NCBI GenBank assembly: GCA_017620015.1
Contig: JAFZRE010000022.1
Location: forward strand, 73,173-137,172
Length of the DNA stretch: 64,000 bases
Source: Bacteroidales bacterium
GTDB taxonomy: Bacteria > Bacteroidota > Bacteroidia > Bacteroidales > ML635J-15
Direction of reading: 5' to 3'
The translations under genes and the position numbers were made by a program. The notes under the pieces are model-generated. The model was not told where the DNA came from and did no database searches. It saw only the letters and a program-made list of their open reading frames with translations. The number at the start of each line of letters is the position of its first letter. The first letter of the stretch is position 1. Shown here one piece after another: positions 5,760 to 48,340 of this stretch.

Positions 5760-5763
5760 CCGA

Positions 5764-5794: not shown

Positions 5795-5848
5795 ATTTAT
5801 TGGCAATAAAATGACTTCAAGCAAGTTTTATTAGCAAAGCATAACACA

Positions 5849-7777: not shown

Positions 7778-7781
7778 AAAT

Positions 7782-8597: not shown

Positions 8598-8756
8598 CTT
8601 ATACAAATTATTTTGTCTGCGAAAGTAGGAAATAAACATTTCGCAACGACGACAAAGAAAAGTATTTATTAAAGGTGGAAGGTTAACAAAACTATATGCC
8701 CACGACACGTCTCCATTCCAAATAATTTGTTTACTTTGCACAAAAATTGAAAAACT

Positions 8757-9716: not shown

Positions 9717-9724
9717 GATATTTT

Positions 9725-11443: not shown

Positions 11444-11949
11444 TTGGACAGGAAATAGTTTACAAGGCATTAGCCGACTTGAACATAAAATTTGAATATT
11501 ACGAATCGCCACGCGACTTCTCGTCGGAAGACGACGGTACATTCTGGAAACGCATTGGTGCCTGCCGATGCAAGAACCTCTTTATGCGCAACCACAAGGG
11601 CAACCAGCACTACTTGCTCATTTCCGACTACTACCGCGACATCAACATCCACGCTATCGAGCACAAACTGAAGCAGGGAAAACTTTCGTTCGCCTCGCAG
11701 GAACGCATCGACAAATGGATTAAAGGAACGATTGGTGCAATTTCTGTCTTTTCGTTACTCAACGACACAGAAAATCACACCATTGCATTCATCGACAAGA
11801 CTTTGCTTACAAAAGGGCACCTAACCTTCCTGCCAAATCAACTTAACGCATTGATTTCCATAAGCACCGAAGATTTTGTAAGAATACTCGACTACACTGG
11901 CAACAAGTACGAATTTGTGGATTTGGAAATTGCGGAAGACATAGAATAA
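11440..11949 (+). CDS. prolyl-tRNA synthetase-associated (YbaK/ProX-type) aminoacyl-tRNA editing domain protein
   Basis: 169 aa with a 4-nt ATGA overlap with meaB. The CKNLFMRN..G..HYLL and GAISVFSLLND motifs are typical of the ProX/YbaK family. Confidence 0.7.
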   Translation: MIGQEIVYKALADLNIKFEYYESPRDFSSEDDGTFWKRIGACRCKNLFMRNHKGNQHYLLISDYYRDINIHAIEHKLKQGKLSFASQERIDKWIKGTIGAISVFSLLNDTENHTIAFIDKTLLTKGHLTFLPNQLNALISISTEDFVRILDYTGNKYEFVDLEIAEDIE

Positions 11950-12019
11950 GACTAACAATCTTCCATATATTTCATAGGTAGCACCCATTCTTTGGAATAT
12001 TTTTAATATTTTTGCAGCG

Positions 12020-13879
12020 ATGCGAAAATTAGTGGTTTTCATAGTAATATTGCTGCTCGGAATTACAGCATTCTCACAGCACGAAGGTATTCGTCGCTAT
12101 TTTTCGTCGTACAAACTCGACAACGACACCACAGCCGACTTCAGTTTCTACAACGACACCACTATCGATAACTTCTACAAGTTCATGCCACAGCAAAAAG
12201 TTTCCGACAATACGCTTGGACTTCTGAACCCAGGAAACCCATATCTTCCTGCATTGTTTTCGGACAAGGAAGCATCACACGACTTCATATTTCTCAACAA
12301 CTACCAGGCATTCATAAAATCGCACAAGGATGTCGTTTACTTCGATGCTCAAACACCATTCTCACGCTTCGACTTCTACGGTGGAAACAAAGGTCTTGAA
12401 ATTGTAAAGTTCATATTAAGCCAGAATTTTACACCCTACTTCAACCTTACATTTAACTACGACATAGCCAATTCCGACGGATTCTACCTCAACAACGCAT
12501 CAAAAGTGAACGCACTGAGTTTCGCAGGAGCATTTACAAAAAAGAAATACCAGAACCATTTCAACTTTATATTCAACAAGATAAACTGCAACGAAAACGG
12601 CGGAATAGCCGACGTGAACAGATTTATGAGCGGGGACATCAGGGCTGTTGACAACAACGTTATGCTCACAAAGGCGACAAGCACAATTTCACAACTCGGC
12701 GGGCAGTACAACCACGAATACCGCTTCGGGCAATATATCGTCGATACCATAATTCGCGACGAAAAAAACGATACTGTCATCAACAAAACTTTGCGCAGCA
12801 AGTTCTCAATAGTCCACGATGTGACTTTTGACCGCTATGTCCGCAAATACCAAGACTCAAAATCATCGTTCTACACGAACATCTACAACGACTCGACAAA
12901 AACAAACGACTCGATAACATACTACCAGTTCAACAACAAGCTGTTGCTATGCCTAAACATACAAAACGACTCAACTGGCAACTCACTGAAACTGTACGCA
13001 GGACTGAAAAACAGAACTTATTCATTCTTAATTGACACCACACACAAAATCACCTACAGTTCAACATACGTCACAGGAGACCTAATCTTCAAGCACAACA
13101 GAACCTTCCTTCAGGCAAATGTCGATTACTGCCTGTTCGGTGGAGATGCATACGACATAAGCATGTCGGTCAAACTGCGGCAGATGTTCGGAGAAAATCT
13201 TGGTATCAATGCAAGAGCCGGGTATTCACGAACCTATTGTTCCTTATTTGAAACCTACTACACATCTAACAATTTCAAATGGGACAACGACTTTGCCAAA
13301 CCTGGAATAGCCAATGCCCATATCGACTTGTTCCACAACAAATACGACCTTTCCATAGGCGCAAATTTTAATCTTCTGCACGACTACATAATTTTCGACC
13401 AGCAAGCTTTGCCGACTCAGATTCACCCGGCCAACATAGTTGCCGATGTATATGCAAACAAGACTTTCAACTTCTGGAAGTTCCACTGGTACACAAAGGT
13501 AGCCTACCAATACATTTCAGACAAGCAATATGTAAGGCTTCCTGAACTTATGGGCTACACAAGCCTTTACTTCATGACCGACATGTTCAACAAGGCACTC
13601 ACTCTGCAAATCGGCCTAGATGCCAAGATGAACTCGAACTTCTACGGCTATGCCTATATGCCTGCAACAGCAGTTTTCTACTTGCAGGACGACCAGAAAT
13701 TTGGATTCTACCCCAACCTCGGCTTTTTTGTCGGTGCAAAAATCAAAAGGTTCCGCGTATTTGCAAAACTGTCGAACTACAATTCGCTATTCATGAAACC
13801 GACATTCTTCTCGCTATACAGACTGCCCGACAATCCTTTTGCGTTCAACTTCGGAATTTCGTGGGAATTCTACAACTAG
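12020..13879 (+). CDS. outer-membrane beta-barrel protein (Bacteroidota putative-porin family)
   Basis: Signal peptide MRKLVVFIVILLLGITAFSQ. The 619-aa sequence is rich in alternating aromatic/polar beta-strand patterns, and the C-terminus is aromatic (ISWEFYN). Confidence 0.6.
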   Translation: MRKLVVFIVILLLGITAFSQHEGIRRYFSSYKLDNDTTADFSFYNDTTIDNFYKFMPQQKVSDNTLGLLNPGNPYLPALFSDKEASHDFIFLNNYQAFIKSHKDVVYFDAQTPFSRFDFYGGNKGLEIVKFILSQNFTPYFNLTFNYDIANSDGFYLNNASKVNALSFAGAFTKKKYQNHFNFIFNKINCNENGGIADVNRFMSGDIRAVDNNVMLTKATSTISQLGGQYNHEYRFGQYIVDTIIRDEKNDTVINKTLRSKFSIVHDVTFDRYVRKYQDSKSSFYTNIYNDSTKTNDSITYYQFNNKLLLCLNIQNDSTGNSLKLYAGLKNRTYSFLIDTTHKITYSSTYVTGDLIFKHNRTFLQANVDYCLFGGDAYDISMSVKLRQMFGENLGINARAGYSRTYCSLFETYYTSNNFKWDNDFAKPGIANAHIDLFHNKYDLSIGANFNLLHDYIIFDQQALPTQIHPANIVADVYANKTFNFWKFHWYTKVAYQYISDKQYVRLPELMGYTSLYFMTDMFNKALTLQIGLDAKMNSNFYGYAYMPATAVFYLQDDQKFGFYPNLGFFVGAKIKRFRVFAKLSNYNSLFMKPTFFSLYRLPDNPFAFNFGISWEFYN

Positions 13880-13883
13880 CATA

Positions 13884-15224
13884 ATGGATATCAATGCAAA
13901 AATATCAAGGATAACCGTGCTGTCGGCATTGTCGATGTGGATTGTCGTTGGCATCATAAAACTAAGCATCGACATAACAAAAGAAGTCCCGCCCAAACCA
14001 TTCGACCGCGACTATAGTGGAATCGTCGCTTCAGAAACACTAAATGTCGCGCTAGCCGAGAACGCCACAGAATACTGCATTTTCAATGCAACGCCACGTG
14101 GATTCCAGCTCGAAACTCTTGAAGATTTCTGCAAGGAACACAATCTCGAACTAAATATAATCCCTATTGGAAACGAAATTATTGCAGAAAGAGTTCTCGC
14201 CGCAAGCAAATGCGACCTAATTGCAAAGCACACCTTTATGACCGACAGCACAATGTCGCAGCCACTCCTTCGTTCAAGCCTTGTAATACTTTCTCGCACA
14301 AAGCAAATCCCCGACACAGTTTATGCAACTGGAACACATAGGTTTCACACTACTTACAACGAGAAAACAATAATTTGTAGCGACATCATCTCGCAAGAAA
14401 AGATTGCACGCAAGGTTGCATCTGGAGAAATAAATGCCACCATCTGCGACTCGGCACTTGCGCTCACCTACCAGAAAGCATATCCACAACTCAAAATAGA
14501 CACGTCAATATGCCTGTCACAAGACATTGTATGGCAAGTAAATCCCGAAGCTAAAGTCCTGCTCGACAGTATAAACGCATGGCTCTCACGCGAAACTGAA
14601 ACCAAGAAGTACAAGTTACGCCACAAAATATACTACTCATACATAAATATAAATGTATCAAGTCAATACTATTCGGGAAACGGCAATAAAATCAGTGCTT
14701 ACGACGACCTTATCAGGAAGCATTCTAAAAAATTACAATGGGACTGGCGCTACATAGCCTCACTGATATACGAAGAATCACACTTTTACCCAAACATAAG
14801 CAATCCATCTGGTGCCTACGGGCTTATGCAGCTTATGCCAGCAGCCTACCAGAAGTTTGCCAACGACAGCGCCGACATTTCCAACCCCGAAGTACAACTT
14901 ATGGCTGGCATAAAGCACGTTGACTACCTAAAAAAACATACACCTGAATCCATTACCGATACCGCCGTGATAATCAGGTATGTGCTTATGGGCTACAATG
15001 CCGGACACGGACACTCGGAAGATGCCTTTCACCTTGCCAAAAAGTATTCGGACAACCCTAACTCATGGCACAATCTTGCTGAATATATGACTTTTCTCAA
15101 CGACAGAACCTACTATACCGACCCCGTAGTAAAATGTGGGAAATACAAGGGAAGCCGCACAGTAGCCTTCACCAACAGCGTGGTTGACAGATACAAGCAT
15201 TATAGAAATCTAATTAGGGAATAA
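13884..15224 (+). CDS. MltF-like membrane-bound lytic murein transglycosylase (solute-binding-like domain + SLT domain)
   Basis: In-frame part of ORF 13839..15224, with ATG at 13884 (MDINAKISRI, TM anchor). The SLT catalytic motif ESHFYPNISNPSGAYGLMQLMP plus GYNAG is present. Confidence 0.8.
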   Translation: MDINAKISRITVLSALSMWIVVGIIKLSIDITKEVPPKPFDRDYSGIVASETLNVALAENATEYCIFNATPRGFQLETLEDFCKEHNLELNIIPIGNEIIAERVLAASKCDLIAKHTFMTDSTMSQPLLRSSLVILSRTKQIPDTVYATGTHRFHTTYNEKTIICSDIISQEKIARKVASGEINATICDSALALTYQKAYPQLKIDTSICLSQDIVWQVNPEAKVLLDSINAWLSRETETKKYKLRHKIYYSYININVSSQYYSGNGNKISAYDDLIRKHSKKLQWDWRYIASLIYEESHFYPNISNPSGAYGLMQLMPAAYQKFANDSADISNPEVQLMAGIKHVDYLKKHTPESITDTAVIIRYVLMGYNAGHGHSEDAFHLAKKYSDNPNSWHNLAEYMTFLNDRTYYTDPVVKCGKYKGSRTVAFTNSVVDRYKHYRNLIRE

Positions 15225-15311
15225 CTTCCGAACATCAAACCATCTTTAGAAACAAAAAAACAGAGAACGCCATTAAAGACATCCCCTGTTTTGATATTCG
15301 TAAAACACGTG

Positions 15312-15872
15312 TTATTGCAGTTTTACGGTCAGACCGAAATCGCCGAACGACACAGCGCAATCGACATAAATTTTCTTACCGTTGTAGTCGTAGCCGTATT
15401 TTGCCTTGGCGTAGTCGCCGTTTGCCTTAATAAACTTAACGTATTCGTCGTAGTCCTTGAATACATCATCGCCACGAGTCTGGTTCATGTGGAAGCCATA
15501 CATTTTTCCGCCGTCAGCAACCTTGGCAAAAGCATTGTAGTATTCCCGCTGAACACCTTCCTTGTCAATGTCAGCGGTAACTGGCGACGCCATGAAAAAC
15601 TCGGTTTCGCTTTCCCTGCGAGCCACGATTTTCGTCATCTTGTCGCTTGTGATTGGTTCGATACCACAGAATTCTTTCATTTGTGCAGAAAACTCCTCGA
15701 ATGAGAGTTCGCTATTTGCCTCGGGAGCAACAGCCTCCTCTACTGCTTCAACAGTCGTTGCAGCGGATTCTTCTGCATTTGTCTCGGTCTGAGAATTAGT
15801 CTTGTTTTCGCCGCCACAAGACATAAGAGTCATTGTTGCAAGGGCAATCATAATTGAATAAAACTTCTTCAT
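15312..15872 (-). CDS. lipoprotein, unknown function
   Basis: Lipobox MKKFYSIMIALATMTLMSCGG. It is a tandem partner of 15934..16479. Confidence 0.6.
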   Translation of the reverse strand: MKKFYSIMIALATMTLMSCGGENKTNSQTETNAEESAATTVEAVEEAVAPEANSELSFEEFSAQMKEFCGIEPITSDKMTKIVARRESETEFFMASPVTADIDKEGVQREYYNAFAKVADGGKMYGFHMNQTRGDDVFKDYDEYVKFIKANGDYAKAKYGYDYNGKKIYVDCAVSFGDFGLTVKLQ

Positions 15873-15933
15873 TGTTGTAAGATTTAAATTTATACAGATG
15901 TTAATTTAATATACAAAAAACTATTTCGTAAAA

Positions 15934-16479
15934 TTACTTTCTGTGCCCTGTCAATTGAATCCATACGGAAGAGCCTGCTGTTACATTGACAGAAATCTCG
16001 TTGTTATTATACTTGTAGTACCATTTGCCCAGATCGTATGACGCAGAATTCAGAGCGCTGTAATCTTCGATTGTCTCGCTTGATATGTAACCTAAATCAT
16101 CGGTTTTGTAGTTCGCCGTGCCGACTTTTTTGGTCACATCAAACAGTTTAGCCTTGTAGGCGTTTTGGAAGTCTGCGGTGTCATCATCTTTGGTGGAATA
16201 AGTGAGTGTCAGTTTAAAGCCTGACGTATAATCACTTCCGCTGACACTGATAATTTTGAAACCATCTTCTTCAATGTCTTTCGCGTCAATTCCGAAATGC
16301 TCTTTCAAGAGTGCGGCATAATTGCTTTCTGTCACGTCATCAAGACCGACTTTGTCCGAACCGACATTTTCAATAGTTTGAGAATTGGCTTCCAATTTTG
16401 AACCATCTCCGCTTGAACCGCAGGAAGCCACCATCATTGTCACAAAAGCGACCATAAAAATTGAAAAAACTTTCTTCAT
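15934..16479 (-). CDS. lipoprotein, unknown function
   Basis: Lipobox MKKVFSIFMVAFVTMMVASCGS. About 60 nt upstream are nearly identical to the region upstream of 15872. Confidence 0.6.
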   Translation of the reverse strand: MKKVFSIFMVAFVTMMVASCGSSGDGSKLEANSQTIENVGSDKVGLDDVTESNYAALLKEHFGIDAKDIEEDGFKIISVSGSDYTSGFKLTLTYSTKDDDTADFQNAYKAKLFDVTKKVGTANYKTDDLGYISSETIEDYSALNSASYDLGKWYYKYNNNEISVNVTAGSSVWIQLTGHRK

Positions 16480-16589
16480 TGTTGTAAAATTTAATTTATA
16501 CTGATGTTAATTTATGTACAATAAAACTATTTCGTAAAAATACTAAAAATAATAGAACTGACAAGAAATATTTTTAGGAATAAAAAATA

Positions 16590-36017: not shown

Positions 36018-37893
36018 CAAACGTAACGGCAAGGAGATTCAACACACTAATATCCTCGACTATTTTCCAACCTCAGTCAAGGAACTGAAGGCTTTTGGCT
36101 GGGACTATATCGATGTTATACTCGTCAGCGGTGATGCTTTTGTTGACCATCCGTCGTTCGGTCCTGCAGTGATTGCAAGGGTTTTGCAGAACGCAGGCTA
36201 CCGCGTAGCAGTAATTCCACAGCCCAACTGGCAGGACGATCTACGCGACTTCCGCAAGTTTGGTGCACCACGCTTGTTCTTTGGCGTTTCGGCAGGCAAT
36301 ATCGACAGCATGCTTAACCACTACACCGCCAACAAACGTCTCCGTAGCGACGATGCCTACACGCCAGGTGGACAAAGCGGACATCGTCCCGACTACGCAA
36401 CAAAGGTTTACTGCAAGATACTCAAGGATATATATCCCGACACGCCAATCGTTATCGGTGGAATTGAAGCCTCGATGCGCCGTTTTGCCCACTACGACTA
36501 CTGGCAGGACAAAATATTGTCGTCGATGCTCGAAATGTCGGGTGCCGACATACTTTGCTATGGGATGTCGGAAAAGTCGATTGTGGAAGTCGCCGACCAC
36601 ATAAACCGCGACGGACATCACTACAACTGCTTCAATATAAGGCAGATCGCCTACCTCAGCGACGGAAACGACAAGAAGAAAGACGACATTGAGCTTCACT
36701 CCTACGCCGAAATCCTTGCCGACAAGCGCAACTACGCCGAAAATTTCGTCATCGTCGAGCGCGAAGCCAACTCGTTCACCAACAGGCGCATAACCCAGCA
36801 ACTTGAACATTCGAAACTGATTGTAAACCCGACATACGAACCACTTTCCGAAAGCGAAATGGACAGCATTTATGCACTGCCGTTTACTCGACTTCCGCAT
36901 CCGCGCTACAACGGCAAGCCCGACATCCCCGCCTACGAAATGATAAAGAACTCGGTGACAATACATCGTGGCTGCTTCGGTGGCTGTTCGTTCTGCACCA
37001 TAGCAGCACATCAAGGCAAGCAAATTTCGAGTCGCTCCGAAAAATCAATAATCGCAGAACTGGAACGCATTTCCAAGATGCCGAACTTCAAGGGGCACAT
37101 ATCCGACATCGGCGCACCGTCGGCAAACATGTACCGCATGCATGGCAACGACGAAGAACTCTGCCGCAAATGCAAGCGTCCGTCGTGCATAGCACCTAAG
37201 ATTTGCCCCAACCTAAACACTTCGCACGAAGAACTTTGCAAACTGTACAGGAAAGCATTGGAAGTCAAAGGCATAAAGAAAATAAGCATAGGCAGTGGAA
37301 TACGCTACGACATAGCCCTGCACAAGACCGGCAATGCCGAAACCGACCGCATAAACGAAGAATACATTGAACTTGTAATATCTAAGTTCGTGTCGGGACG
37401 ACTGAAAGTCGCTCCCGAGCACACCTCGTCCAAAGTGCTGGAACTTATGCGCAAAACACCTTTCGACAAGTTTGGGGAACTGAAAGCCTTATTTGACCGC
37501 ACAAACAAGAAATACGGGCTAAAACAACAGCTTATCCCATATTTTATCTCGGCGCATCCAGGTTGCAAGGAAGAAGATATGGCCGAACTTATGGCGCAAA
37601 TCAGCGACCTCGGCATCTGTCCCGAACAAGTGCAGACCTTCACCCCTACCCCGATGACCCTCTCTACTGTGATGTACTACACCGAACTGAATCCATACAC
37701 AATGGAAAAGGTTTATGTACCGAAGTCGCGCGAAGAACGTGAAAATCAGAATATGTACTTCTTCTGGTACACCCCGGATGCACGCAAGAAGATTGAAAAA
37801 CGGTTGCACCAGCTTGGTCGCGACGACATATTAAAGAAAATGAAAGTGTCCAATTCCAGAACAAACAACAACAGTTACCGTAAAAATGGCTAA
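35998..37893 (+). CDS. ygiQ: YgiQ-family radical SAM protein (UPF0313)
   Basis: The N-terminus GWDYIDVILVSGDAFVDHPSFG matches E. coli YgiQ. The radical-SAM cluster motif is RGCFGGCSFCTI. Confidence 0.88.
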   Translation: MNSSLDNKRNGKEIQHTNILDYFPTSVKELKAFGWDYIDVILVSGDAFVDHPSFGPAVIARVLQNAGYRVAVIPQPNWQDDLRDFRKFGAPRLFFGVSAGNIDSMLNHYTANKRLRSDDAYTPGGQSGHRPDYATKVYCKILKDIYPDTPIVIGGIEASMRRFAHYDYWQDKILSSMLEMSGADILCYGMSEKSIVEVADHINRDGHHYNCFNIRQIAYLSDGNDKKKDDIELHSYAEILADKRNYAENFVIVEREANSFTNRRITQQLEHSKLIVNPTYEPLSESEMDSIYALPFTRLPHPRYNGKPDIPAYEMIKNSVTIHRGCFGGCSFCTIAAHQGKQISSRSEKSIIAELERISKMPNFKGHISDIGAPSANMYRMHGNDEELCRKCKRPSCIAPKICPNLNTSHEELCKLYRKALEVKGIKKISIGSGIRYDIALHKTGNAETDRINEEYIELVISKFVSGRLKVAPEHTSSKVLELMRKTPFDKFGELKALFDRTNKKYGLKQQLIPYFISAHPGCKEEDMAELMAQISDLGICPEQVQTFTPTPMTLSTVMYYTELNPYTMEKVYVPKSREERENQNMYFFWYTPDARKKIEKRLHQLGRDDILKKMKVSNSRTNNNSYRKNG

Positions 37894-38977
37894 GCTACTT
37901 TTCATACACTACAAGAAATCGAGAAATATCCTCGAAGGCGGCGAACAATGCACGAACCGCAACCGTTCGGCTTTGGCAAAGATTGTTGGAGAAAACAACC
38001 TAACATCCTACCACATACACGAAGACAATGAAAAGAAAAGCCTGTTTACGATGCTAGGCAGCGGCATACTTTCAATCTTCAACTACTACTACGGACTTTC
38101 GCCACGACGGGTAAAGAAAATCGTAGCGATGGCACAGGGATACGACTATGTCTTTATTGACCGCAGCGTGTTCGGCATTATTGCCAAGGCGCTAAAAAAG
38201 AACGGGTACAAAGGCAAGATTATAACCTTTTTCCACAACGTGGAAGTTCCGTACTTCAGGGCAAAGCTGAGCCACAACTGGCTTGCAAGGCTTTTACTGC
38301 TTGGCTGCATCGACAAAAACGACAAGTACTCGTGCGAATACTCCGACAAGCTTATTGTACTGAACGAACGCGACCGAAACGAAATAAAAACAAGGTACGG
38401 ACGAATTGCAGAGTCGGTAATCCCAATTTCACTTGCCGACAAATGCCAAAACAAGCCACAAAGCCAAGAAATGACATCGGATAAGCCGCTTTGCATGTTC
38501 CTTGGCTCCTATTTCCCACCCAACAACGAAGGCATAATCTGGTTTGCAAAGAATGTGCTTCCGCATGTAAGCATAAGGATGAAGATTGTCGGCAAAGGAA
38601 TGTCGCAGTTAAGAAACGACGAGCCGGAACTGATGAAAGACATTGAAATAGCAAGCGATGTCCCAAATCTGGAACCGTTTTTTGAAGAAGCCGACATTAT
38701 GGTTCTGCCCATTTTTTCGGGAAGCGGCATGAAGGTAAAGACCTGCGAATCGCTCATGCACGGCAAGAACATCATCGGCACAAGCGAAGCATTTGAAGGT
38801 TACGATATCGAGACCGAAAAGGTTGGCGGCAAATGCAACACGGCAGAAGAATTTATCGCTCTGCTAAACGATTTTGCAAAGAATCCACGGCCTAAATTCA
38901 ACGAATATTCGCGAAATGCCTTCCTCAAGAACTATTCTGAAGATGCTGTAATTGAAAAGTTTAGGGAAATATTTTAA
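37886..38977 (+). CDS. glycosyltransferase, GT-B fold (GT4-like)
   Basis: 363 aa. The C-terminal domain has MKIVGKG...ADIMVLPIFSGSGMKVKTCESLMHGKNIIGT (EX7E-like). It has an 8-nt overlap with the ygiQ end. Confidence 0.7.
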   Translation: MAKLLFIHYKKSRNILEGGEQCTNRNRSALAKIVGENNLTSYHIHEDNEKKSLFTMLGSGILSIFNYYYGLSPRRVKKIVAMAQGYDYVFIDRSVFGIIAKALKKNGYKGKIITFFHNVEVPYFRAKLSHNWLARLLLLGCIDKNDKYSCEYSDKLIVLNERDRNEIKTRYGRIAESVIPISLADKCQNKPQSQEMTSDKPLCMFLGSYFPPNNEGIIWFAKNVLPHVSIRMKIVGKGMSQLRNDEPELMKDIEIASDVPNLEPFFEEADIMVLPIFSGSGMKVKTCESLMHGKNIIGTSEAFEGYDIETEKVGGKCNTAEEFIALLNDFAKNPRPKFNEYSRNAFLKNYSEDAVIEKFREIF

Positions 38978-39103: not shown

Positions 39104-40021
39104 ATGATTTCGATAATCGTCTGCACATACAACCGAGCCAAGTACCTATACGATGCCCTTGCAAGCATCGCCAGCAACGACTTTCCTCGCAACGAATACG
39201 AAATCATACTCGTAAACAACAACAGCATCGACGACACCGAAGAAAAATGCCAGCAGTTTGCTGCGAATTTCCCCGATGTCAATTTTAGATACTGTACAGA
39301 AAGCAAGCAAGGGCTTTCGTTTGCCCGCAACAAGGGCATAGCCGAAAGCAATGGCGACATTCTTGTCTTTCTTGACGATGATGTTGTCGTAAAGTCCAAT
39401 TACCTTAGAAATCTAAAGTCGAACCTCAACAACACGCCAGACCTGATGGCTTTCGGCGGAAAGATAACACCACGATTCGAAGCAGGGCATCCGCCCAAGT
39501 GGCTTAACAGATGGATGTATTCGCTGATTTCGGCAACCAACTGCCCCGACAAGACGCAAAAATACAGCAAACGCAAGTACCCAATTGGTGCAAACATGGG
39601 ATTCAGAAGGCAATGCCTCGAAAAAAGCGGTTATTTCAACACCGAGCTTGGTCGTACCGGAAACATTCTTCTTGGTGGCGAAGAGAAAGACATTTTCATC
39701 AAAATAAAAGGCTTGGGAATGGGAATCTACTATTTCCCCGATGTTGAAATAGAACACATTATCCCCGAATCGAGAACAACGGAAGAATACATAGAGCGAG
39801 TTGGCCTAGGTGTTGGCATCAGCGAGCGGATACGCTGCACATCCGCAGGTAAGCGAAGCCTGCACAAGCGTCATTTTCAAGAATTTGTAAAATGGTGCGG
39901 CACAATAGTGCTTGCTACTTACTACACACTTACATTCAGATTGCAAGTGGCAAAAGTGATGTGGAAGTTTAGGAAGAATGTGACAAAGGGACTGTCCTAC
40001 AAATCAAGTCTTCTGTACTGA
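39104..40021 (+). CDS. glycosyltransferase family 2
   Basis: ISIIVCTYNRAKYL, ILVNNNSIDDT, and FLDDD as the DXD motif. Confidence 0.85.
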   Translation: MISIIVCTYNRAKYLYDALASIASNDFPRNEYEIILVNNNSIDDTEEKCQQFAANFPDVNFRYCTESKQGLSFARNKGIAESNGDILVFLDDDVVVKSNYLRNLKSNLNNTPDLMAFGGKITPRFEAGHPPKWLNRWMYSLISATNCPDKTQKYSKRKYPIGANMGFRRQCLEKSGYFNTELGRTGNILLGGEEKDIFIKIKGLGMGIYYFPDVEIEHIIPESRTTEEYIERVGLGVGISERIRCTSAGKRSLHKRHFQEFVKWCGTIVLATYYTLTFRLQVAKVMWKFRKNVTKGLSYKSSLLY

Positions 40022-40692
40022 CGCTCAGGAGACGCAATGATACAAGTTTTCCGAGTTTTTTCTGTCCAATTCTTCACTGGTGTCATAAAATCATCTCCAT
40101 AAATATCGCGTAGCCACGATTCTGCCTTAGCTGCCATGTAGAATTTATGTCCAAGGAATTCAACTTCATCAAATTCAGTTCTCTCTACAGGAAAAATAAA
40201 TGTTGGAAATCCATCGGTTTCGTTTGCCGTACGCCAATCCTTGAATTCGTGCTTTCGCGGTGGACTGCAAGCTATTCTTTGTTCGTCAAAGTCATAATAG
40301 TAATAAATATCAATAGGAACGCCATCGTATTTGAACTGGTCAATTGTAATGCGTCCATTTGATTTGATATACGACTGCTTTAAAAAAGTAAAGCCATTTT
40401 CCTTGAATATATCAATGATGTTATCAGGGCGTTCGGAAGCGAGCATACCAAGGTCAATGTCGAAATCGTACGGAATAAATCCTTTTTCACGATATGCGCC
40501 AAGCAAAAGTCCAAAGCAGAAAAACACCTTGATATTGCGCTCGCGCATCATTGCATCTACCTTTGCAAGGACATCAATACCTCTTTCCTTTATTGCCTTG
40601 GCTTCCTTCTTTTCGATATATTTGTTCGCTTTCTTTACGATAAACTTGTATATGCCCAAGGCAGAAGCAATCTTCACTAAAAATTTTCTCAT
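39997..40692 (-). CDS. LicD-family phosphotransferase (CDP-X:glycan phospho-head-group transferase family)
   Basis: FFCFGLLLGAYREKGFIPYDFDIDLGM matches the LicD LLGAVRH.GFIPWDDDID signature. It converges on and overlaps the GT2 gene by 25 nt. Confidence 0.75.
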   Translation of the reverse strand: MRKFLVKIASALGIYKFIVKKANKYIEKKEAKAIKERGIDVLAKVDAMMRERNIKVFFCFGLLLGAYREKGFIPYDFDIDLGMLASERPDNIIDIFKENGFTFLKQSYIKSNGRITIDQFKYDGVPIDIYYYYDFDEQRIACSPPRKHEFKDWRTANETDGFPTFIFPVERTEFDEVEFLGHKFYMAAKAESWLRDIYGDDFMTPVKNWTEKTRKTCIIASPERQYRRLDL

Positions 40693-40702
40693 AGCATCAG
40701 TT

Positions 40703-41341
40703 TTATTTTTCTGCCACTATTGCGTAGAAATGAGTATTCGTCCACCTGTTGCACTCTGGCGGATAAATATCTGCAACTTCAATATTGCAATATCCTATTT
40801 TCTTCAAATTAGCTACTTCCTTGTCGATATACCTGTACTGTGCAAAATAGTTGGTTTTCTGTTCTTCAGAATAACCTTCAACAGTAACATCCTCTGTTAC
40901 ACCGAACTGGTTCTTTATTATTATTTTACCACCTTTCTTAAGATTACCGAAATACTTGGTGTAAATCTTCACCGATTCTTCCTCGTTGAAATAATGCATG
41001 GTTCCGAATATGGTAATCAAATCGAAAAGGCTATTGCTTGGTGTGTAGTCATCAAATGTATGATTTACAATTTCAACATTGGAAGATTTTACAATGAATT
41101 TTGTAAACGACTCAAAAGGCTCAACCGCAACAATTCGCTTAACCTTGTCGTAAATTTTATTAACTACCAATCCTGTTCCGCTACCCAAGTCAAGTATCTC
41201 GGTATTAGCGTTGCTGTATTTCAAAATAAAATCAGCATCCATCTGCGAAAAGTCGCTTGCATTTGCAAGTTTTACCGACTTCTGGTCGTTTGTATTTTGA
41301 GACATGCGCTCAAAAAAATCCAATGCTTCCTTATTTTCCAT
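40703..41341 (-). CDS. class I SAM-dependent methyltransferase
   Basis: Motif I is ILDLGSGTGLV, followed by IVAVEP and LKKGGKIII. Confidence 0.8.
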   Translation of the reverse strand: MENKEALDFFERMSQNTNDQKSVKLANASDFSQMDADFILKYSNANTEILDLGSGTGLVVNKIYDKVKRIVAVEPFESFTKFIVKSSNVEIVNHTFDDYTPSNSLFDLITIFGTMHYFNEEESVKIYTKYFGNLKKGGKIIIKNQFGVTEDVTVEGYSEEQKTNYFAQYRYIDKEVANLKKIGYCNIEVADIYPPECNRWTNTHFYAIVAEK

Positions 41342-42050
41342 AGTAATCTTTTGTCAAATCGTATATCTTGTCGGCAAGAACCTCAAGAGAATCAATAACA
41401 TTTGTATCGTCAGAATGATAATCCACCCTTATGTCGGTACAACCCATAACAACTGTATCGCAACCTTTTTCAAGCAAATGAACGCGGACTTCCTCAAATA
41501 TCCTAGCAGGTCTTTCTGGCGAATCCAAAGCATCAAACCTGTGAATATTCTTTACATTGCAGATTCCTTTTGTAACGTTCTTCTGCACCATAGGTTCGGG
41601 ATAGACAAGCTCCACTTCGGGGCAAATCTCTGCGAAGTAGCGCTCGTAAACCTTTCCGCCAAGACATCCATCAGAAGCAACAAGTCCTACCTTTTTCGCT
41701 CCTAACTGCTTGCATTTCAAAGCAACTTCTGCGATAAGGTTTATGAATTTCACGCCTACCTTACTTTCGATTTCCGGCAAGGCATAATGAGCTGTATTGC
41801 AGCACATACATATGGTATCGGCTCCAGCATTTTTCAGTTTGATTCCTACATTCACATAGTCGTCGATATAACTTGGACCCTTACCTTCGAGATACATACT
41901 TCTAGATGGAGCCTGAGTGGCCTGATAGATAATCATTTCGGGATGATGGCAGTCGCGAAACGCACCATTTCTGGTATATTTCTCCTCTATCAATTCGCAA
42001 AGCTTGTTTGTCGCCGCTACTCCTGCCGCTCCTATTACACCAACAACCAT
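41331..42050 (-). CDS. Asp/Glu/hydantoin racemase-family protein
   Basis: VVGVIGAAGVAAT at the N-terminus, MCCNTAHYAL (first Cys motif) and VVMGCTD (second Cys motif) fit the two-Cys racemase fold. Confidence 0.75.
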   Translation of the reverse strand: MVVGVIGAAGVAATNKLCELIEEKYTRNGAFRDCHHPEMIIYQATQAPSRSMYLEGKGPSYIDDYVNVGIKLKNAGADTICMCCNTAHYALPEIESKVGVKFINLIAEVALKCKQLGAKKVGLVASDGCLGGKVYERYFAEICPEVELVYPEPMVQKNVTKGICNVKNIHRFDALDSPERPARIFEEVRVHLLEKGCDTVVMGCTDIRVDYHSDDTNVIDSLEVLADKIYDLTKDYYGK

Positions 42051-42052
42051 AA

Positions 42053-42685
42053 CTACCAGTTCTTTGTTATTTCCATTACCCTCTTATAATCATCGTAAGT
42101 ATCTATGTCGTAAGCTCTTACTTTTATGCCTTTCATAGGCAAATATGGTTCAAGCTGGTTAAACACATTACCCGACGAATATTGTACCTTGCGCTTCATT
42201 ATGCAGGCCGGTCCAGTCCATTCGTAGTCGCCAGTCTCGCGCGAAAAGGCAAGCACATCGCCGTTCTCGTCGGTCTGCACAAACACAGCCTCGTCGGAAC
42301 TCTTGTCGGCATAGCAGATAAATTCGCCATCTGTGGCTAATATTTTCTTCACATCGTCGGGGTGAACAAGCAGGTCGCCGTCCCATTCAAGCACATATTC
42401 CTTTGCATCGACAGCACCCAGATAGAAACTTGCACCAGTCTTTGTCTCAAAATAACGGTGATTGTAAACAAACACCACATCTTTCCTGTGCTTCAGCACC
42501 TCCTCTATTATGTCGTTTGCCTGATAGCCGATGACAATACGAACATCCTCGACATCCTTAAACAGTTCCAACTGCCATGCAATCAACGACTTGCCATTTA
42601 TCTTAATCAAGGCCTTTGTCTGCCCCAATCCGAGACGCGAACCTATTCCCGCACAACTTATAACAACTGATTTAACTGACGACAT
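42053..42685 (-). CDS. nucleotidyltransferase (LicC/MobA-like NTP-transferase fold)
   Basis: VVISCAGIGSRLGLGQTKALIKINGKSLIAWQLE matches the G-x-G-t-R-l signature of sugar/alcohol-phosphate cytidylyl/nucleotidyl transferases. Confidence 0.75.
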   Translation of the reverse strand: MSSVKSVVISCAGIGSRLGLGQTKALIKINGKSLIAWQLELFKDVEDVRIVIGYQANDIIEEVLKHRKDVVFVYNHRYFETKTGASFYLGAVDAKEYVLEWDGDLLVHPDDVKKILATDGEFICYADKSSDEAVFVQTDENGDVLAFSRETGDYEWTGPACIMKRKVQYSSGNVFNQLEPYLPMKGIKVRAYDIDTYDDYKRVMEITKNW

Positions 42686-43263
42686 AAGGCTTTCTCATTA
42701 AAAATCAAATAATTAGTTATAGGCAAAATACTCTTCGACGGTGAGTGTGTCATCCCTACGGCTATAGCCACATCGGCCACACGCATAGCTTCCATGTCGT
42801 TGTTGCCGTCGCCGATGTAAACAACTTTGTATCCTTCTTCCTGATACTTCTCCACCACGACTTCCTTGCGCAGAATTTTAGTCAGCTTTACAACTTTGTT
42901 GTTCTCGACAATAGCATCAGAGCAATAAGCCTCGCAACCAAGTCTAGCAAGCAACTTTTCCGACCAGCAAAGCAAGTTTCCCGTTGCAACAACGCACTGT
43001 TCCTTGTGCTCACGGATAAAGCCAACAAGTTCCGGATACATATTTACATTTTCCAACAAATTAGCAACCTCATCGACGGGCAGTTTACCAAGTATGAAAA
43101 CGCGACGTATAAAGCTTTCCACAAACGGAATGTCGCCCTGTATGGTCTCACGCGTAAGCTGTTCGATTTCCTCCTGCACATTGAAATGCTTTGCCATCAA
43201 GGGCAAAGTTTCCTCGGAAGTTATCGTCCCGTCTAAATCGAATATGAATTTTATTTTCGACAT
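42658..43263 (-). CDS. HAD-IB (phosphoserine-phosphatase-like) hydrolase
   Basis: In-frame part of ORF 42658..43293, with start MSKIKFIFDLDGTIT (DxDGT motif I). Motif IV is YIGDGNNDMEAM. Confidence 0.8.
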   Translation of the reverse strand: MSKIKFIFDLDGTITSEETLPLMAKHFNVQEEIEQLTRETIQGDIPFVESFIRRVFILGKLPVDEVANLLENVNMYPELVGFIREHKEQCVVATGNLLCWSEKLLARLGCEAYCSDAIVENNKVVKLTKILRKEVVVEKYQEEGYKVVYIGDGNNDMEAMRVADVAIAVGMTHSPSKSILPITNYLIFNEKALCRQLNQLL

Positions 43264-43314
43264 ATACCTTTTAGGCTTGTAAACAAACTGCAAAGTTAAT
43301 AACTTTACCGAACA

Positions 43315-44349
43315 TCAAAAATATTCTCTCACCGCAAATTCAAACTGCGAAATATATATTTCCTTGAATGCGTACAAATTATTCTGTTCATAGAATATTA
43401 ATATCGCCTTCTTATAATCAATTGTGTCAACAGTACGGAACGATATTGGGCAATAGCCATTTGCCATCAGCAATGCATTTGCGACAAGACGAGCAGTTCT
43501 CTTATTTCCATCCATAAATGGCTGTATATAACTTAAAAGAAGCAAGGCCAACAACGACTTTTCAAACACATTGTTCCTATTATTTATAAGAGTACACATA
43601 TCACGCAATGCCTCTCGAATCTGGAACTCGTTGTCGAGCGGGCGATAATTTGTACCAGTGATGCCAACACGACGATGACGAATTCCTTTGTCAACAGACA
43701 AATCCTGAGTAAGAATCGTATGAATGTCCTCTATACGACCTATAGTCAGTTCTTCAAGATAATCGGGATTATCAAGGATAAAACGCAATGCATACTTATG
43801 GTTCAATAGCATAACGGCCTCCTCTTTGGATTTTCCATCGGCAGTCTTGCTTCCTCGCAAAAGCCTCTCGGTCTCCAATAAAGAATACGTGTTACCCTCA
43901 ATTTGCGAAGATTTCCAACTGAAATCAATTCCCAGCCGTTCAAACTCCTTCCGCTGTTCTCCTTCTGTCATTTCTGACAAATGCTTACAAAATAGCGACT
44001 GCGCATCATTCAACCTTGCAAGTTCATCATCCGAAAACAATAAAACTTTCGGCAACTGCTCATTAATCAAGTCAAAGTTGAAAACCTTTTGTACTACGCG
44101 TTCATCAATATCTTTGGCAAAATATGTATCTAGATTCAAAGGCATCAGCAAGTGGGCCGAAGCGGATAACGAATAACGCGTTGCCCGGCCTTTTCCAGTG
44201 ACAACAATATATCCGGAATCAACCGCCGAAGCAATTTTCCTCTTCAATGTAGCATCACTACCTTCAAATGAAACCCCAGCAAATATCTCATCTCGCGAAC
44301 TTTCAGGATGATAATGCAGGAACTGAAATATTTCTCTATCCGAATCCAT
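43315..44349 (-). CDS. Fic/DOC-family protein with N-terminal winged-helix domain; Fic motif has Gln in place of the catalytic His
   Basis: The core reads YIQPFMDGNKRTAR, whereas the canonical motif is HxFx(D/E)GN(G/K)RxxR. An upstream SSQIEGN matches the (S/T)xxxE(G/N) inhibitory motif. Confidence 0.8.
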   Translation of the reverse strand: MDSDREIFQFLHYHPESSRDEIFAGVSFEGSDATLKRKIASAVDSGYIVVTGKGRATRYSLSASAHLLMPLNLDTYFAKDIDERVVQKVFNFDLINEQLPKVLLFSDDELARLNDAQSLFCKHLSEMTEGEQRKEFERLGIDFSWKSSQIEGNTYSLLETERLLRGSKTADGKSKEEAVMLLNHKYALRFILDNPDYLEELTIGRIEDIHTILTQDLSVDKGIRHRRVGITGTNYRPLDNEFQIREALRDMCTLINNRNNVFEKSLLALLLLSYIQPFMDGNKRTARLVANALLMANGYCPISFRTVDTIDYKKAILIFYEQNNLYAFKEIYISQFEFAVREYF

Positions 44350-44357
44350 AAGTAGTC

Positions 44358-44371
44358 AAAAAAAAAAAAAA
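44358..44371. repeat. homopolymer A14 (T14 on the coding strand) between the Fic -7 box and start codon
   Basis: I counted 14 consecutive A at 44358-44371. The Fic ATG is at 44349 and the box TATTTTTG at 44378-44385. Confidence 0.9.
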
Positions 44372-44377
44372 TCGGCT

Positions 44378-44385
44378 CAAAAATA
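44378..44385 (-). promoter_or_regulatory. -7 box TATTTTTG for the Fic gene
   Basis: The plus strand reads caaaaata. Confidence 0.45.
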
Positions 44386-44485
44386 CTAAAATTTTCAATA
44401 TTATCGGCTCACTCATGAACCGAAAAAGAAGAAAAAGACATCCGATTTGAGCCGAAAAGATAAAATACAATCAATATCAGAAGAA

Positions 44486-46126
44486 TTAATTTCGCAAACA
44501 CCTTACACTAACACCAACACTCTTGTGATTGTGCGTTTTGCTCAACTCTTCCAAATCATATCTAAGTCTCCTATCCCACGCACTATTAGAATCACCATAT
44601 TCTGTATCAGAAGTCCACCACCAAGTACGATTCCCTTTTTCTTGAAAATGAGAAGTGGCAATTTTCATTCCTGCCGGTTTACCATTGAAACTGCTTGTAT
44701 TGTTCTTAGGTTGCAACCATCCTGGAGTGTTTTCTATCTCAGAATCAACCCAACCACAAGTTGAAGCCAACGACTTAGCTATTACATTATGCGTTTCCCT
44801 ATCGTTATCCGTATCAATATAATCGTCAAAATTATAACCATTATTCTCTAGATACACTTCCAATTGCGACCATTCGGCATCGCTAGGCAGATGCCAGCCA
44901 GCAGGACAAGCAGACTGCGCCGCCTCCCAGTTGTACAAAACACCAAACTCGCTGTAATTGGGATTATTCCTGGCTTCATTTACATCTGTACCATCATAAT
45001 CATAAACATAATATCTCGCATCGACGACAGAAGCATCTGCAAGATAATTTACATTCGGAAGATAGCGCAGATTCTCCGAAAACCACTCCTGCTCACCCAA
45101 CATAATGGAGCAATATGAATTTCCATCGCGCTCGTCATACACTCCAGAACCCAAATGCAACCACAACAAAACAATGCTGTCGCAGCCGTTTGCCGCAGTA
45201 AGAATCTGCTGATAGCTACCGCTCTCGGTAAAAGTTTCGCCATTGTACACAAACGGATCTGCACATGTATTTATTTCCACCTCACTATACACGGGAACAC
45301 CATTATTAGTAATAGTTAAATGCAGAAGCACAATGCTATCGCAGCCATGAACATCTTGAAACGTATGCTCATAATCGCCGCTTTCGGTATAAGTTTCACT
45401 ACCAAAAACATACGCAGCACATCTTTCCACATTTATTTCCGTATGCGAAGGAGCAGGACAATCTACAATATCAAATTCAAGGGATATATCCTCACTTCCA
45501 GCCTGCACTTTTGTCACCGGCGTACTTGTGTACGAAACACCATTATATGTAGCATAACCTGTGTATCTCATATCATCGTTAAGATTGAAGTCACCACTGA
45601 CAACAATCTTTTCGCTAGCCATTGTGCCTTTGCTCCAAATACGGTCAGCATTGCCCGAACCAATGTTCATCAGCTTTATGGTCGATGTTGTTCCGTTTGC
45701 CGTTACCGAAAGAAAATAGACATCTGGTTGCAACAAACTGACGCCAAACATATTGGCACCTTCCATTGCGTTACCATTGTATTCGGCAAACATACGCCCC
45801 GACACATCAAAAACTTTTATCGAAACAGCACCTGCCTTAGGTAAATTCACTACAAAATCTGTTTCGCCATCAAAAGGATTCGGCGCACATGAATGCATTT
45901 CGGCATCAGCAACAGGACCACTAATTCCATTAAGTATTGCAACCATTATGGTGTCGGGATATATGGCAGTCCTGTCCCACCCCTGCGAATAGTTATGAAT
46001 TGCAACGCTGTCGAGCCTCTGGTAACCGCCATTGGCATTTACTCCTGTAAACGAAACAACAACGTCCTGTGCAAACACTATCATGCTAAGGAGCAAAATT
46101 GATAATATCAGAGCTAGTTTTTTCAT
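44486..46126 (-). CDS. secreted FISUMP (Fibrobacter succinogenes major paralogous, TIGR02145-like) domain protein with the same N-terminal T9SS-CTD-like module
   Basis: ORF 44486..46150, with start MKKLALILSILLLSMIVFAQ (cat at 46124-46126). The N-terminal module has RLDSV..GW..T.IYPDT..APNPFDGETDFVVNLP..VSIKVFDVSGRM..YFLSV..TIKLMNIG. The C-terminus has MLGEQEWFSENL..GVLYNWEAAQSACPAGWHLPSDAEWSQLE...GVSVRCLRN. Confidence 0.85.
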   Translation of the reverse strand: MKKLALILSILLLSMIVFAQDVVVSFTGVNANGGYQRLDSVAIHNYSQGWDRTAIYPDTIMVAILNGISGPVADAEMHSCAPNPFDGETDFVVNLPKAGAVSIKVFDVSGRMFAEYNGNAMEGANMFGVSLLQPDVYFLSVTANGTTSTIKLMNIGSGNADRIWSKGTMASEKIVVSGDFNLNDDMRYTGYATYNGVSYTSTPVTKVQAGSEDISLEFDIVDCPAPSHTEINVERCAAYVFGSETYTESGDYEHTFQDVHGCDSIVLLHLTITNNGVPVYSEVEINTCADPFVYNGETFTESGSYQQILTAANGCDSIVLLWLHLGSGVYDERDGNSYCSIMLGEQEWFSENLRYLPNVNYLADASVVDARYYVYDYDGTDVNEARNNPNYSEFGVLYNWEAAQSACPAGWHLPSDAEWSQLEVYLENNGYNFDDYIDTDNDRETHNVIAKSLASTCGWVDSEIENTPGWLQPKNNTSSFNGKPAGMKIATSHFQEKGNRTWWWTSDTEYGDSNSAWDRRLRYDLEELSKTHNHKSVGVSVRCLRN

Positions 46127-46147
46127 AATCCAATATATTACCTGATG

Positions 46148-46155
46148 CAAATATA
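46148..46155 (-). promoter_or_regulatory. -7 box TATATTTG
   Basis: The plus strand reads caaatata, 22 nt upstream of the ATG at 46126. Confidence 0.5.
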
Positions 46156-47620: not shown

Positions 47621-48340
47621 CTAATAACCTTTGTCTGAAATAAGATTCTCCAGCAAGCTCAAATCCTTTGGATAAGTTACCTTTATATTCGAATCCTCGC
47701 CATCGGCAATGAAAATCTTCTCGTTTGGAAGATAGCGCGAAACTACACCGCAATCGTCGGTAGCGACAAAATTCGGGTCGGCAAGAGCAAATTTATATGC
47801 CTGCTCAATAGTTTCGTAACGGAATGCCTGAGGCGTCTGCTGGCAACGCAAAAGCTGACGCTGCAAAATCTCGCTAATCATACGTCCCGATTCGTCAACC
47901 TTCACAATTGTGTCGGTTGCCGGCACAGCGACTGCGATAGAATTATAAGTTTCAAGGGCCGAAACCACATCCGAAATTATCCTCTGCGAAACCATCGGGC
48001 GAACTGCATCATGGAAAATAAGGTTGCAATCAATGCCTTCGTATGCCCGAATTGCCGACATGCTTGAATCGGAACGCTCATTGCCTCCATTTAAAATATG
48101 CTTCAGTTTCGACCACGAGTTTGCTGCTGCAATTTCTTCCATCAGCGGAACAAAGTCCTTGTTAACGACAACAGCAATCTCGTCAATGCCAGCATTTTTC
48201 TCGAATGCGTCAATAGAATATTCAATTATCCGCCTTCCGCCAACTTGCAAAAACTGCTTTGGCAAATCGCCTCCAATCCTGCGACCGCTTCCACCAGCCA
48301 AAACTACCGCTACATTCTTTCTTTTCATCTTGCTACTCAA
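47621..48340 (-). CDS. ispD: 2-C-methyl-D-erythritol 4-phosphate cytidylyltransferase
   Basis: VAVVLAGGSGRRIGGDLPKQFLQVGGRRII, HDAVRP and VPATDT are present. Confidence 0.92.
   Translation of the reverse strand: MSSKMKRKNVAVVLAGGSGRRIGGDLPKQFLQVGGRRIIEYSIDAFEKNAGIDEIAVVVNKDFVPLMEEIAAANSWSKLKHILNGGNERSDSSMSAIRAYEGIDCNLIFHDAVRPMVSQRIISDVVSALETYNSIAVAVPATDTIVKVDESGRMISEILQRQLLRCQQTPQAFRYETIEQAYKFALADPNFVATDDCGVVSRYLPNEKIFIADGEDSNIKVTYPKDLSLLENLISDKGY

Follow-up and report, generated by a model that had tools for sequence, protein, structure and literature searches.

Which head group does a five-gene LicD cassette of a rumen Bacteroidales bacterium build, and to what is that group attached? The cassette lies in a stretch of 64,000 nucleotides (contig JAFZRE010000022.1 of assembly GCA_017620015.1, positions 73,173 to 137,172 of the forward strand), referred to here as the window. 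It encodes a HAD-IB enzyme (HAD), a LicC-like nucleotidyltransferase (NTP), a racemase (RAC), an S-adenosylmethionine (SAM)-dependent methyltransferase (MT) and a LicD-family phosphotransferase. An initial annotation, made from the letters of the window, had described these five co-oriented genes as facing a GT4 and a GT2 glycosyltransferase; all of the open reading frames (ORFs) were found, including the 25 nt by which the ends of the convergent LicD and GT2 genes overlap, and the family calls for the five enzymes were upheld by Pfam and NCBIfam profiles and by PDB matches. By analogy with characterised systems, the operon probably attaches a D-amino-acid phosphate to a surface glycan. With modest confidence, the island as a whole (GT4, GT2, LicD, MT, racemase, NTP and HAD) was read as a head-group pathway of the cytidine diphosphate (CDP)-amino-acid type, related in logic to ftaABCD of C. 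difficile and with a product in the D form. A D-amino-acid-derived phosphodiester decoration had been offered in the initial annotation as an alternative, and it is the proposal that the evidence below favours.

Neighbourhoods were surveyed in genomes and in metagenomes. A racemase profile was scanned against one genome per species, yielding 59 loci, of which 57 were non-redundant and were used. Loci were clustered by ORF and BLAST, and neighbours were counted within 4.5 kb. An NTP-anchored metagenome scan yielded 80 loci, 41 of them with sufficient flanking sequence. More than 100 loci, spread over at least ten phyla, carry the cassette, and the named sources are mostly gut or rumen. Carriers include Prevotellaceae, Muribaculaceae, Rikenellaceae, Helicobacter, Desulfovibrionaceae, Mucispirillum, Akkermansia and other Verrucomicrobia, as well as Kiritimatiellae, Alphaproteobacteria, Holosporales, Vampirovibrio, Gastranaerophilales, Lachnospiraceae, Planctomycetes, Cloacimonadota and one Shapirobacteria genome of the candidate phyla radiation (CPR). 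The closest relative of the window, L005, is 98% identical to it, and L006 is 94% identical. Conservation of the neighbourhood, which the initial annotation had suggested surveying, is beyond chance in the 57 racemase-anchored genome loci and the 80 NTP-anchored metagenome loci.

A cytidylyltransferase was found in 50 of the 57 racemase loci, and in 40 of those 50 it was the LicC-like enzyme paired with a HAD. Ten loci (L016, L020, L021, L022, L025, L049, L050, L053, L054 and L062) carry a TagD-like PF01467 enzyme of 140-150 aa directly upstream of the racemase, without a HAD. These enzymes score 54 bits against a TagD equivalog cut-off of 165, far enough below it that their substrate is probably other than glycerol-3-phosphate. 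Glycerol phosphate as the substrate of the racemase, an idea that came from these TagD-like variants, was rejected; its C2-H is insufficiently acidic for a two-cysteine racemase, and the same shortfall in score opposes it. A phosphotransferase was present in 41 of the 57 loci, as LicD in 16 and in 25 as a TagF-like protein of 420-490 aa, a divergent PF04464 CDP-alcohol phosphotransferase (28-44 bits, cut-off 22.1). The window type of MT occurs in just 22 of the 57, a second MT in nine and a small radical SAM enzyme in four. The racemase gene is always positioned after the cytidylyltransferase gene and ahead of the MT or the transferase. Judged by gene content, three parts make up the conserved core: a cytidylyltransferase, the racemase and a CDP-alcohol phosphotransferase. 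The last may interchangeably be LicD or the TagF-like protein, and the MT is optional tailoring. LicD can therefore not be the defining part of the cassette that the initial annotation took it for.

Some loci depart from this plan. At L002, L026, L061, L014 and L121 (Helicobacter, Anaeromicropila and others), a radical SAM enzyme of 260-300 aa with a MoaA/viperin-like N-terminus and a second MT stand between the NTP and the racemase, which suggests further modification of the head group. Two loci show TagF-like proteins in unrelated settings. In a gut Firmicute (L068, about 540-12350), a flagellin-adjacent cluster with a TagF-like protein, IspD/TarI-like enzymes, an alcohol dehydrogenase, an FGGY kinase and a LicD fusion has the look of a flagellin glycan modification of the ribitol-phosphate type (CDP-ribitol context). 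The other (L069) is a Lachnospiraceae MT-HAD-TagF locus.

The HAD matches PF00702/PF12710. It passes the HAD-IB model TIGR01488 (73.7 bits, cut-off 45) and, although SerB is what it most resembles, falls below the SerB equivalog TIGR00338 (78 bits, cut-off 144); by these scores it is a HAD-IB member and not a SerB equivalog. The best PDB match was the M. jannaschii phosphoserine phosphatase (PSP) 1f5s/1j97 (E=9e-13), and the alignment with that enzyme shows the nucleophile motif DxDxT and also GDGxND to be preserved. Residues E20, F49 and R56 of PSP, which we take to hold the amino group, the side chain and the carboxylate of the substrate, respectively, correspond to E18, F47 and R54 of the HAD. 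Among 72 cassette HADs, D9, D11, T13, E18, F47, R54 and D156 are invariant or conserved in 71 (E18 in 71, R54 in 72). Because E18 and R54 are kept, the HAD looks fitted to an amino-acid phosphate.

The NTP is a MobA-like nucleotidyltransferase (PF12804, E=1.8e-10) whose best PDB match was the S. pneumoniae CTP:phosphocholine cytidylyltransferase LicC (1jyk, E=2.5e-9), and its identity across phyla is 60-90%. The HAD and NTP reading frames overlap by 28 nt in the window. In at least eight racemase genome loci and many metagenome loci, one protein of about 412 aa combines the two; fusions were seen at L028, L029, L034, L036, L043, L045, L059 and L063 and at many of L093-L135. Pfam and NCBIfam hold a dedicated model for none of the five cassette proteins.

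The racemase scores 124 bits against the amino-acid racemase model TIGR00035, above its cut-off of 93.1, and 127.5 bits against the cysteate racemase CuyB (NF052483), below the equivalog cut-off of 190. The initial annotation had left the choice between aspartate racemase and maleate isomerase to be checked; the enzyme is of the aspartate-racemase type, and neither maleate isomerase nor hydantoin racemase was among its matches (PDB E<=1e-3 for maleate isomerase). It aligns over its full length with the Pyrococcus aspartate racemase 1jfl (E=2e-29). Residues C82, C194 and R48 of 1jfl align with C84, C204 and R50, and the column of K164 holds N168, one residue away from K167. Among 31 racemase homologues C84, C204, R50 and K167 are invariant. 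Since both cysteines and the arginine that binds acidic side chains (R50) are kept, the racemase looks active and is predicted to suit an anionic side chain. Amino-acid, aspartate and cysteate racemases are the curated families nearest to it, which fits a side chain that bears a phosphate. It shares with P. horikoshii aspartate racemase (1jfl/2dx7) and CuyB the two-cysteine fold along with both catalytic cysteines and the arginine for acidic side chains. It differs from them in that identity is about 30%, the clade of the window is dedicated to glycan-decoration cassettes, and the proposed phospho- or CDP-amino acid substrate is not known in their family. More than 1000 relatives were found at E<=1e-10, and the top 120 are 56-96% identical.

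The MT matches PF13649 and related families, and reaches 27.4 bits at a cut-off of 27 in the alpha-N-methyltransferase family PF05891. Its AF2 model is a bare class I fold (pLDDT 89.7), and the best Foldseek TM-scores (0.72-0.76) were to DhpI, the alpha-N-terminal methyltransferases NRMT1/2/NTM1 and the Plasmodium phosphoethanolamine N-methyltransferase. The modelled fold fits N-methylation of a small phospho-amine without proving it. LicD was matched by PF04991 over residues 50-86 only (35 bits, cut-off 22.6, E=1.8e-8) and by NF045866 (Mf1) at E=9e-14. It keeps all the invariants of a 25-member alignment (G61, G65, R68, D76-x-D78-x-D80 and D128), every member of which is matched by PF04991.

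By family, four of the five enzymes fit a known type of pathway, and the cassette is not categorically new. The initial annotation had judged that its product was probably not a described one; this needs correcting in so far as four of the five enzymes share the logic of ftaABCD and of PA1088-PA1091, which runs via CDP-threonine. The Type A flagellin glycan of C. difficile is N-acetylglucosamine (GlcNAc)-P-N-methyl-L-threonine, and the genes cd0241-cd0244 are ftaABCD (PMC4441256; PMC10714395; bioRxiv 10.64898/2026.02.12.704994). FtaA is a PSP-like HAD, FtaB a LicC-like nucleotidyltransferase (CD0242, UniProt Q18CY2), FtaC a small SAM methyltransferase and FtaD (Q18CY0) is TagF-like; the HAD, CD0241, was proposed to be a ThrH-like phosphoserine:threonine phosphotransferase and the nucleotidyltransferase to make CDP-L-threonine (PMC4441256; PMC10714395). 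The PDB match that the authors report for CD0241 is the PSP 1f5s/1j97, which is also the best match of the HAD of the window. CDP-threonine as well as CDP-N-methylthreonine was detected in vivo, the activities of FtaC (CDP-threonine N-methyltransferase) and FtaD (phosphotransferase) were reconstituted, and an FtaA-FtaB heterodimer was predicted by AlphaFold (bioRxiv 10.64898/2026.02.12.704994). The overlap and the fusions of HAD and NTP described above fit that predicted complex.

At the level of families, the window matches ftaABCD in its adjacent PSP-like HAD and LicC-like NTP, followed by a class I MT and a CDP-alcohol phosphotransferase in the same order. The product logic is shared as well, with an (N-methyl) amino acid joined to a sugar by a phosphodiester, and a transferase of the FtaD type is the one found in the 25 TagF-like loci. 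The window differs from ftaABCD in that a racemase is inserted between NTP and MT, its transferase is LicD whereas FtaD is TagF-like, and no flagellin gene was found either inside the island or up to about 8 kb away. The Campylobacter copies of the cassette lie in the lipooligosaccharide (LOS) locus, which argues for a glycan or glycolipid target rather than flagellin.

Among the rows listed in the authors' DIAMOND table are matches to cd0241, cd0242 and cd0243 in a Desulfovibrionaceae metagenome-assembled genome; in the present survey Desulfovibrionaceae carry the racemase cassette (L023 and L047). The listed rows of their mOTUs cluster table include no Bacteroidota or Campylobacterota. The words racemase, epimerase, LicD and Bacteroid* are absent from the text of the preprint (bioRxiv 10.64898/2026.02.12.704994), and in the literature searched no such cluster is described as having a racemase or LicD. 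The initial annotation could place the racemase in no described LicD pathway, and none was found in that literature. Nor does that literature describe the non-flagellar setting or the breadth across gut phyla. A literature match to a C. jejuni "phosphoserine phosphatase" proved to be Cj1435 of the serinol pathway and was set aside as unrelated.

Two further systems were compared. PA1088-PA1091 of P. aeruginosa PAO1 produce the b-type flagellin glycan, deoxyhexose-P-N,N-dimethylthreonine (PMC11833859). The logic of HAD, nucleotidyltransferase and methyltransferase and the amino-acid phosphodiester on a sugar are common to both; PA1091, however, fuses the transferase to a glycosyltransferase, and the context is flagellar and has no racemase. 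PAO1 is without a cd0243-type match among the listed rows of the published cluster table. The lic1 locus (LicA, LicB, LicC and LicD; Haemophilus, S. pneumoniae) likewise combines a LicC-family cytidylyltransferase with a LicD-family transferase and a CDP-activated head group. The window differs in having no choline permease or kinase and in adding the PSP-like HAD, the racemase and the MT, and its head group must be chiral. LicA and LicB were found neither in the island or its flanks (about 8 kb) nor among the recurrent neighbours of the 57 loci. This supports the suggestion of the initial annotation that the CDP-activated head group is made by the cassette itself and not from scavenged choline.

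Pairs of islands with and without the racemase show where it enters. The LOS locus of Campylobacter coli (L064/L065) has the order TagF-like-HAD-NTP-MT, with 15 nt between NTP and MT and no racemase, while at the same LOS position Campylobacter lari (L066/L067) has TagF-like-HAD-NTP-racemase-MT. The shared proteins (TagF-like, HAD, NTP and MT) of the two species are 78, 85, 83 and 76% identical. Compared with the window, the C. coli cassette has a TagF-like protein in place of LicD, and its HAD, NTP and MT are 61, 59 and 63% identical. The C. coli locus is LOS class XII, with uncharacterised chemistry (bioRxiv 10.1101/050328); the LOS chemistry appears to be solved for neither cassette. The 41 NTP-anchored metagenome loci with adequate flanks divide into 21 with the racemase and 20 without it.

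The closest comparison is with the rumen contig L073, a sister of the window island. Its HAD, NTP and GT2 are 95.5, 97.6 and 91.5% identical to those of the window and its GT4 is 71% identical, as in racemase-plus relatives. L073 lacks the racemase, and identity falls to 54.8% for the MT and 63.8% for LicD. DNA homology between the two ends at 42049, the NTP stop, and restarts at 40771. In the racemase-plus relative L071 the HAD, NTP, racemase, MT and LicD are 100, 100, 93, 99 and 96% identical to the window. From the comparison of L073 with L071, racemase, MT and LicD act as an exchangeable module downstream of an unchanged HAD-NTP pair; the racemase itself is a modular insert by the Campylobacter comparison and the metagenome counts. 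Together with the invariant gene order and the HAD-less loci, the L073 comparison suggests that the racemase acts after cytidylylation. In 34 of 41 cases (permutation p about 0.0015) an MT and its nearest neighbour agree on whether the racemase is present, and weaker tracking was seen for NTP (41/58) and HAD (38/55), all of these counts being confounded by relatedness.

The positions of the island genes are given in Table 1. The NTP is followed by the racemase after a 2-nt gap, the racemase and MT reading frames overlap by 11 nt, and LicD begins 10 nt after the MT. The HAD frame is also open from a TTG codon (42658-43293); the conserved N-terminus of the family, MSKIKFIFDLDG, begins at the ATG at 43263. 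Contigs from rumen metatranscriptomes cover 39840-41160 and 41135-43415 unbroken at 90-95% identity, consistent with an expressed operon, DNA carry-over being possible. GT2, which probably builds the acceptor glycan for LicD, is 90-94% identical in the close relatives L005, L006, L071 and L073. In relatives that have a cassette 93-100% identical to that of the window, the identity of GT4 is down to 68-71%. The GC content of the cassette is 0.38-0.45. The initial annotation had called the block more AT-rich than its flanks, which is right with respect to ygiQ (0.47-0.51) and wrong for the FISUMP side (0.39-0.43), where the content is the same.

Table 1. Positions of the island genes in the window and of the Campylobacter cassettes in their own loci.
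Feature	Position	Strand	Description
HAD	42658-43263	-	HAD-IB enzyme resembling phosphoserine phosphatase, FtaA-like
NTP	42053-42685	-	LicC-like nucleotidyltransferase, FtaB-like; PF12804
Racemase (RAC)	41331-42050	-	cofactor-independent two-cysteine aspartate-racemase type, racemase or epimerase; PF01177
MT	40703-41341	-	minimal class I SAM methyltransferase; generic
LicD	39997-40692	-	short LicD-family phosphotransferase; PF04991
GT2	39104-40021	+	glycosyltransferase, convergent with LicD; PF00535, E=1e-28
GT4	37886-38977	+	GT4-type glycosyltransferase, variable partner of the island; PF13692, E=4e-12
C. coli L064/L065 and C. lari L066/L067 cassettes	about 6800-10650		LOS loci

In the proposed pathway, the PSP-like HAD would supply an O-phospho-L-amino acid. 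Phosphothreonine is the likeliest by analogy, with the phosphate transferred from phosphoserine as in ThrH; the alternative is phosphoserine itself. Threonine is favoured because of the Fta analogy, and it would explain the need for a HAD phosphotransferase, phosphothreonine being to our knowledge no general metabolite. The roughly ten TagD-like loci without a HAD imply that some cassettes may use a common phospho-metabolite such as phosphoserine. The LicC-like NTP would join the O-phospho-amino acid with cytidine triphosphate (CTP) to give a CDP-L-amino acid, as its family and the Fta enzymes suggest. The two-cysteine racemase would then invert C-alpha to give the CDP-D-amino acid (D-allo-threonine if derived from L-threonine), the position of this step being taken from comparative genomics. 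By analogy with FtaC, the MT would N-methylate the CDP-amino acid. Finally, LicD would move the phospho-(N-methyl)-D-amino acid to the glycan made by GT2 and GT4, releasing cytidine monophosphate.

Several points weigh against this pathway. The replacement of the HAD by a TagD-like enzyme in about ten loci makes threonine insecure; the amino acid is proposed by analogy, and the acceptor glycan is a prediction from the two glycosyltransferases. The proposed homology to FtaA-D is a matter of shared families and gene order. The lineage of LicD does not follow the presence of the racemase (nearest neighbour 15/31), and the nearest-neighbour statistics, confounded as they are by relatedness, are merely suggestive. 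Classification of the MT, a check put forward in the initial annotation, gave the minimal class I fold; the O-methyltransferase DhpI scores equal to N-methyltransferases in the structure search, which leaves N- and O-methylation unseparated. Contigs of RNA libraries can contain DNA, and no flippase or polymerase was found beside the island in the window.

The same pathway could run with the racemase earlier. Its substrate would be the free amino acid, which would make it a serine, threonine or homoserine racemase of the kind of E. coli YgeA, or else the O-phospho form, and HAD and NTP would then handle the D-isomer. This order is less likely than the later one, yet quite plausible, and of the alternatives it survives best. 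The family is known solely for free amino acids, the R50 pocket with K167 near the K164 column would suit O-phosphoserine or O-phosphothreonine equally to a CDP ester, and the absence of correlation between LicD lineage and racemase agrees with it. It is opposed by HAD and NTP enzymes that are 96-98% identical in islands with and without the racemase, where it is the MT and LicD that are replaced. The place of the racemase gene, always behind the cytidylyltransferase and before the MT or transferase, also speaks for the later step, as does its retention in the TagD-like loci that have no HAD.

Improbable, in our assessment, is a head group of phosphoglycerate or another alpha-hydroxy acid phosphate, as with Caulobacter CpgD (CDP-glycerate), in which the racemase would interconvert D- and L-2-phosphoglycerate (2-PG) or CDP-glycerate and the MT would form a methyl ether or ester. 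The HAD residue E18, whose counterpart in PSP binds the alpha-amino group, is conserved in 71 of 72 members, and the racemase passes the amino-acid racemase model; we know of no member of that family that acts on hydroxy acids. Moreover, a glycolytic intermediate needs no HAD step, and the CpgD paper does not mention a racemase. Set against this, CDP-glycerate is a real metabolite, its nucleotidyltransferase accepts 3-phosphoglycerate, D-2-PG and L-2-PG, and the acidity of the C-alpha proton in 2-PG suffices for two-base chemistry. The fold of the MT fits DhpI, an O-methyltransferase, no worse than it fits N-methyltransferases, and the TagD-like variants would require just a central metabolite.

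De novo synthesis of phosphocholine or phospho-N-methylethanolamine, with the MT as a phosphoethanolamine N-methyltransferase feeding LicC and LicD, had been raised in the initial annotation and is given very little credence. LicC is the best solved relative of the NTP, LicD is present in the cassette, and phosphoethanolamine N-methyltransferases are among the structural neighbours of the MT (TM-scores 0.64-0.74). A decarboxylase, a kinase and a permease are nevertheless found in neither the island nor the related loci, most loci are without an MT, and the HAD keeps the residues for the alpha-amino and alpha-carboxylate groups of phosphoserine. Ethanolamine and choline are achiral, which would leave the universally linked racemase without a role. 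That the genes are mere neighbours from separate pathways (for instance a racemase supplying D-Asp or D-Glu for the cell wall and a housekeeping SerB) is hardly credible, for although each gene alone has a plausible housekeeping annotation, their tight linkage in at least ten phyla, overlapping frames, fusions and co-transfer as an island, and the distance of the HAD from the SerB equivalog cut-off, all oppose it.

The island is flanked by a YgiQ-type radical SAM protein, a Fic protein, a Fib_succ_major (FISUMP) protein of the type IX secretion system (T9SS) and an AAA_14 ATPase. On the GT4 side stands ygiQ in the window, whereas in L005 what comes after the GT4 is a polytopic membrane protein of 826 aa (14081-16561, minus strand), YfhO-like by eye; the island thus occupies different genomic contexts. 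The Fic-domain gene (43315-44349, minus strand) directly upstream of the cassette is a presence/absence variant. Homology jumps from 43312 to 44362 in the relatives L006, L071 and L078, which lack the gene, and a contig from a sheep-rumen RNA library joins 43283 to 44400, bypassing it. The FISUMP protein (44486-46150, minus strand) has an internal match to a T9SS sorting domain. It matches two adjacent sites in relatives (L005, 4332-5929 and 5913 to about 7600; L006), where there appears to be a tandem array of paralogues. An IspD-like cytidylyltransferase (47621-48340, minus strand) scores 174.4 bits against the IspD equivalog-domain cut-off of 181.3 and 151 against 166 bits in the D-ribitol-5-phosphate cytidylyltransferase subfamily; it is probably, though not certainly, the housekeeping IspD.

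It was not until 2026 that CDP-activated amino acids were established as metabolites of the cell, and this in a single flagellar pathway, that of C. difficile. The survey suggests that CDP-amino-acid chemistry is far more widespread, extending to Bacteroidales, Campylobacter, Helicobacter, Desulfovibrionaceae, Verrucomicrobia, Alphaproteobacteria, Melainabacteria-type Cyanobacteria (Vampirovibrio, Gastranaerophilales), CPR and others, and the cassette appears to serve non-flagellar glycans such as LOS in a version with D-stereochemistry. Two new activities are predicted, a phospho- or CDP-amino-acid epimerase and phospho-amino-acid transfer by a LicD. Islands that differ in having or lacking the racemase and share near-identical upstream enzymes are natural controls, and the pair of C. 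lari (racemase-plus assembly GCA_025771925.1) and C. coli is culturable. A more speculative proposal, put forward tentatively, is that the racemase may be the first cofactor-independent epimerase to act on a nucleotide-activated amino acid, and a plug-in L/D switch of surface decoration with matched MT or transferase alleles in gut and rumen bacteria of at least ten phyla. If true, this would add an axis of surface-antigen variation that had not been recognised before, including the LOS of C. lari versus C. coli class XII. Zwitterionic or D-amino-acid surface groups could influence host immune recognition and phage adsorption.

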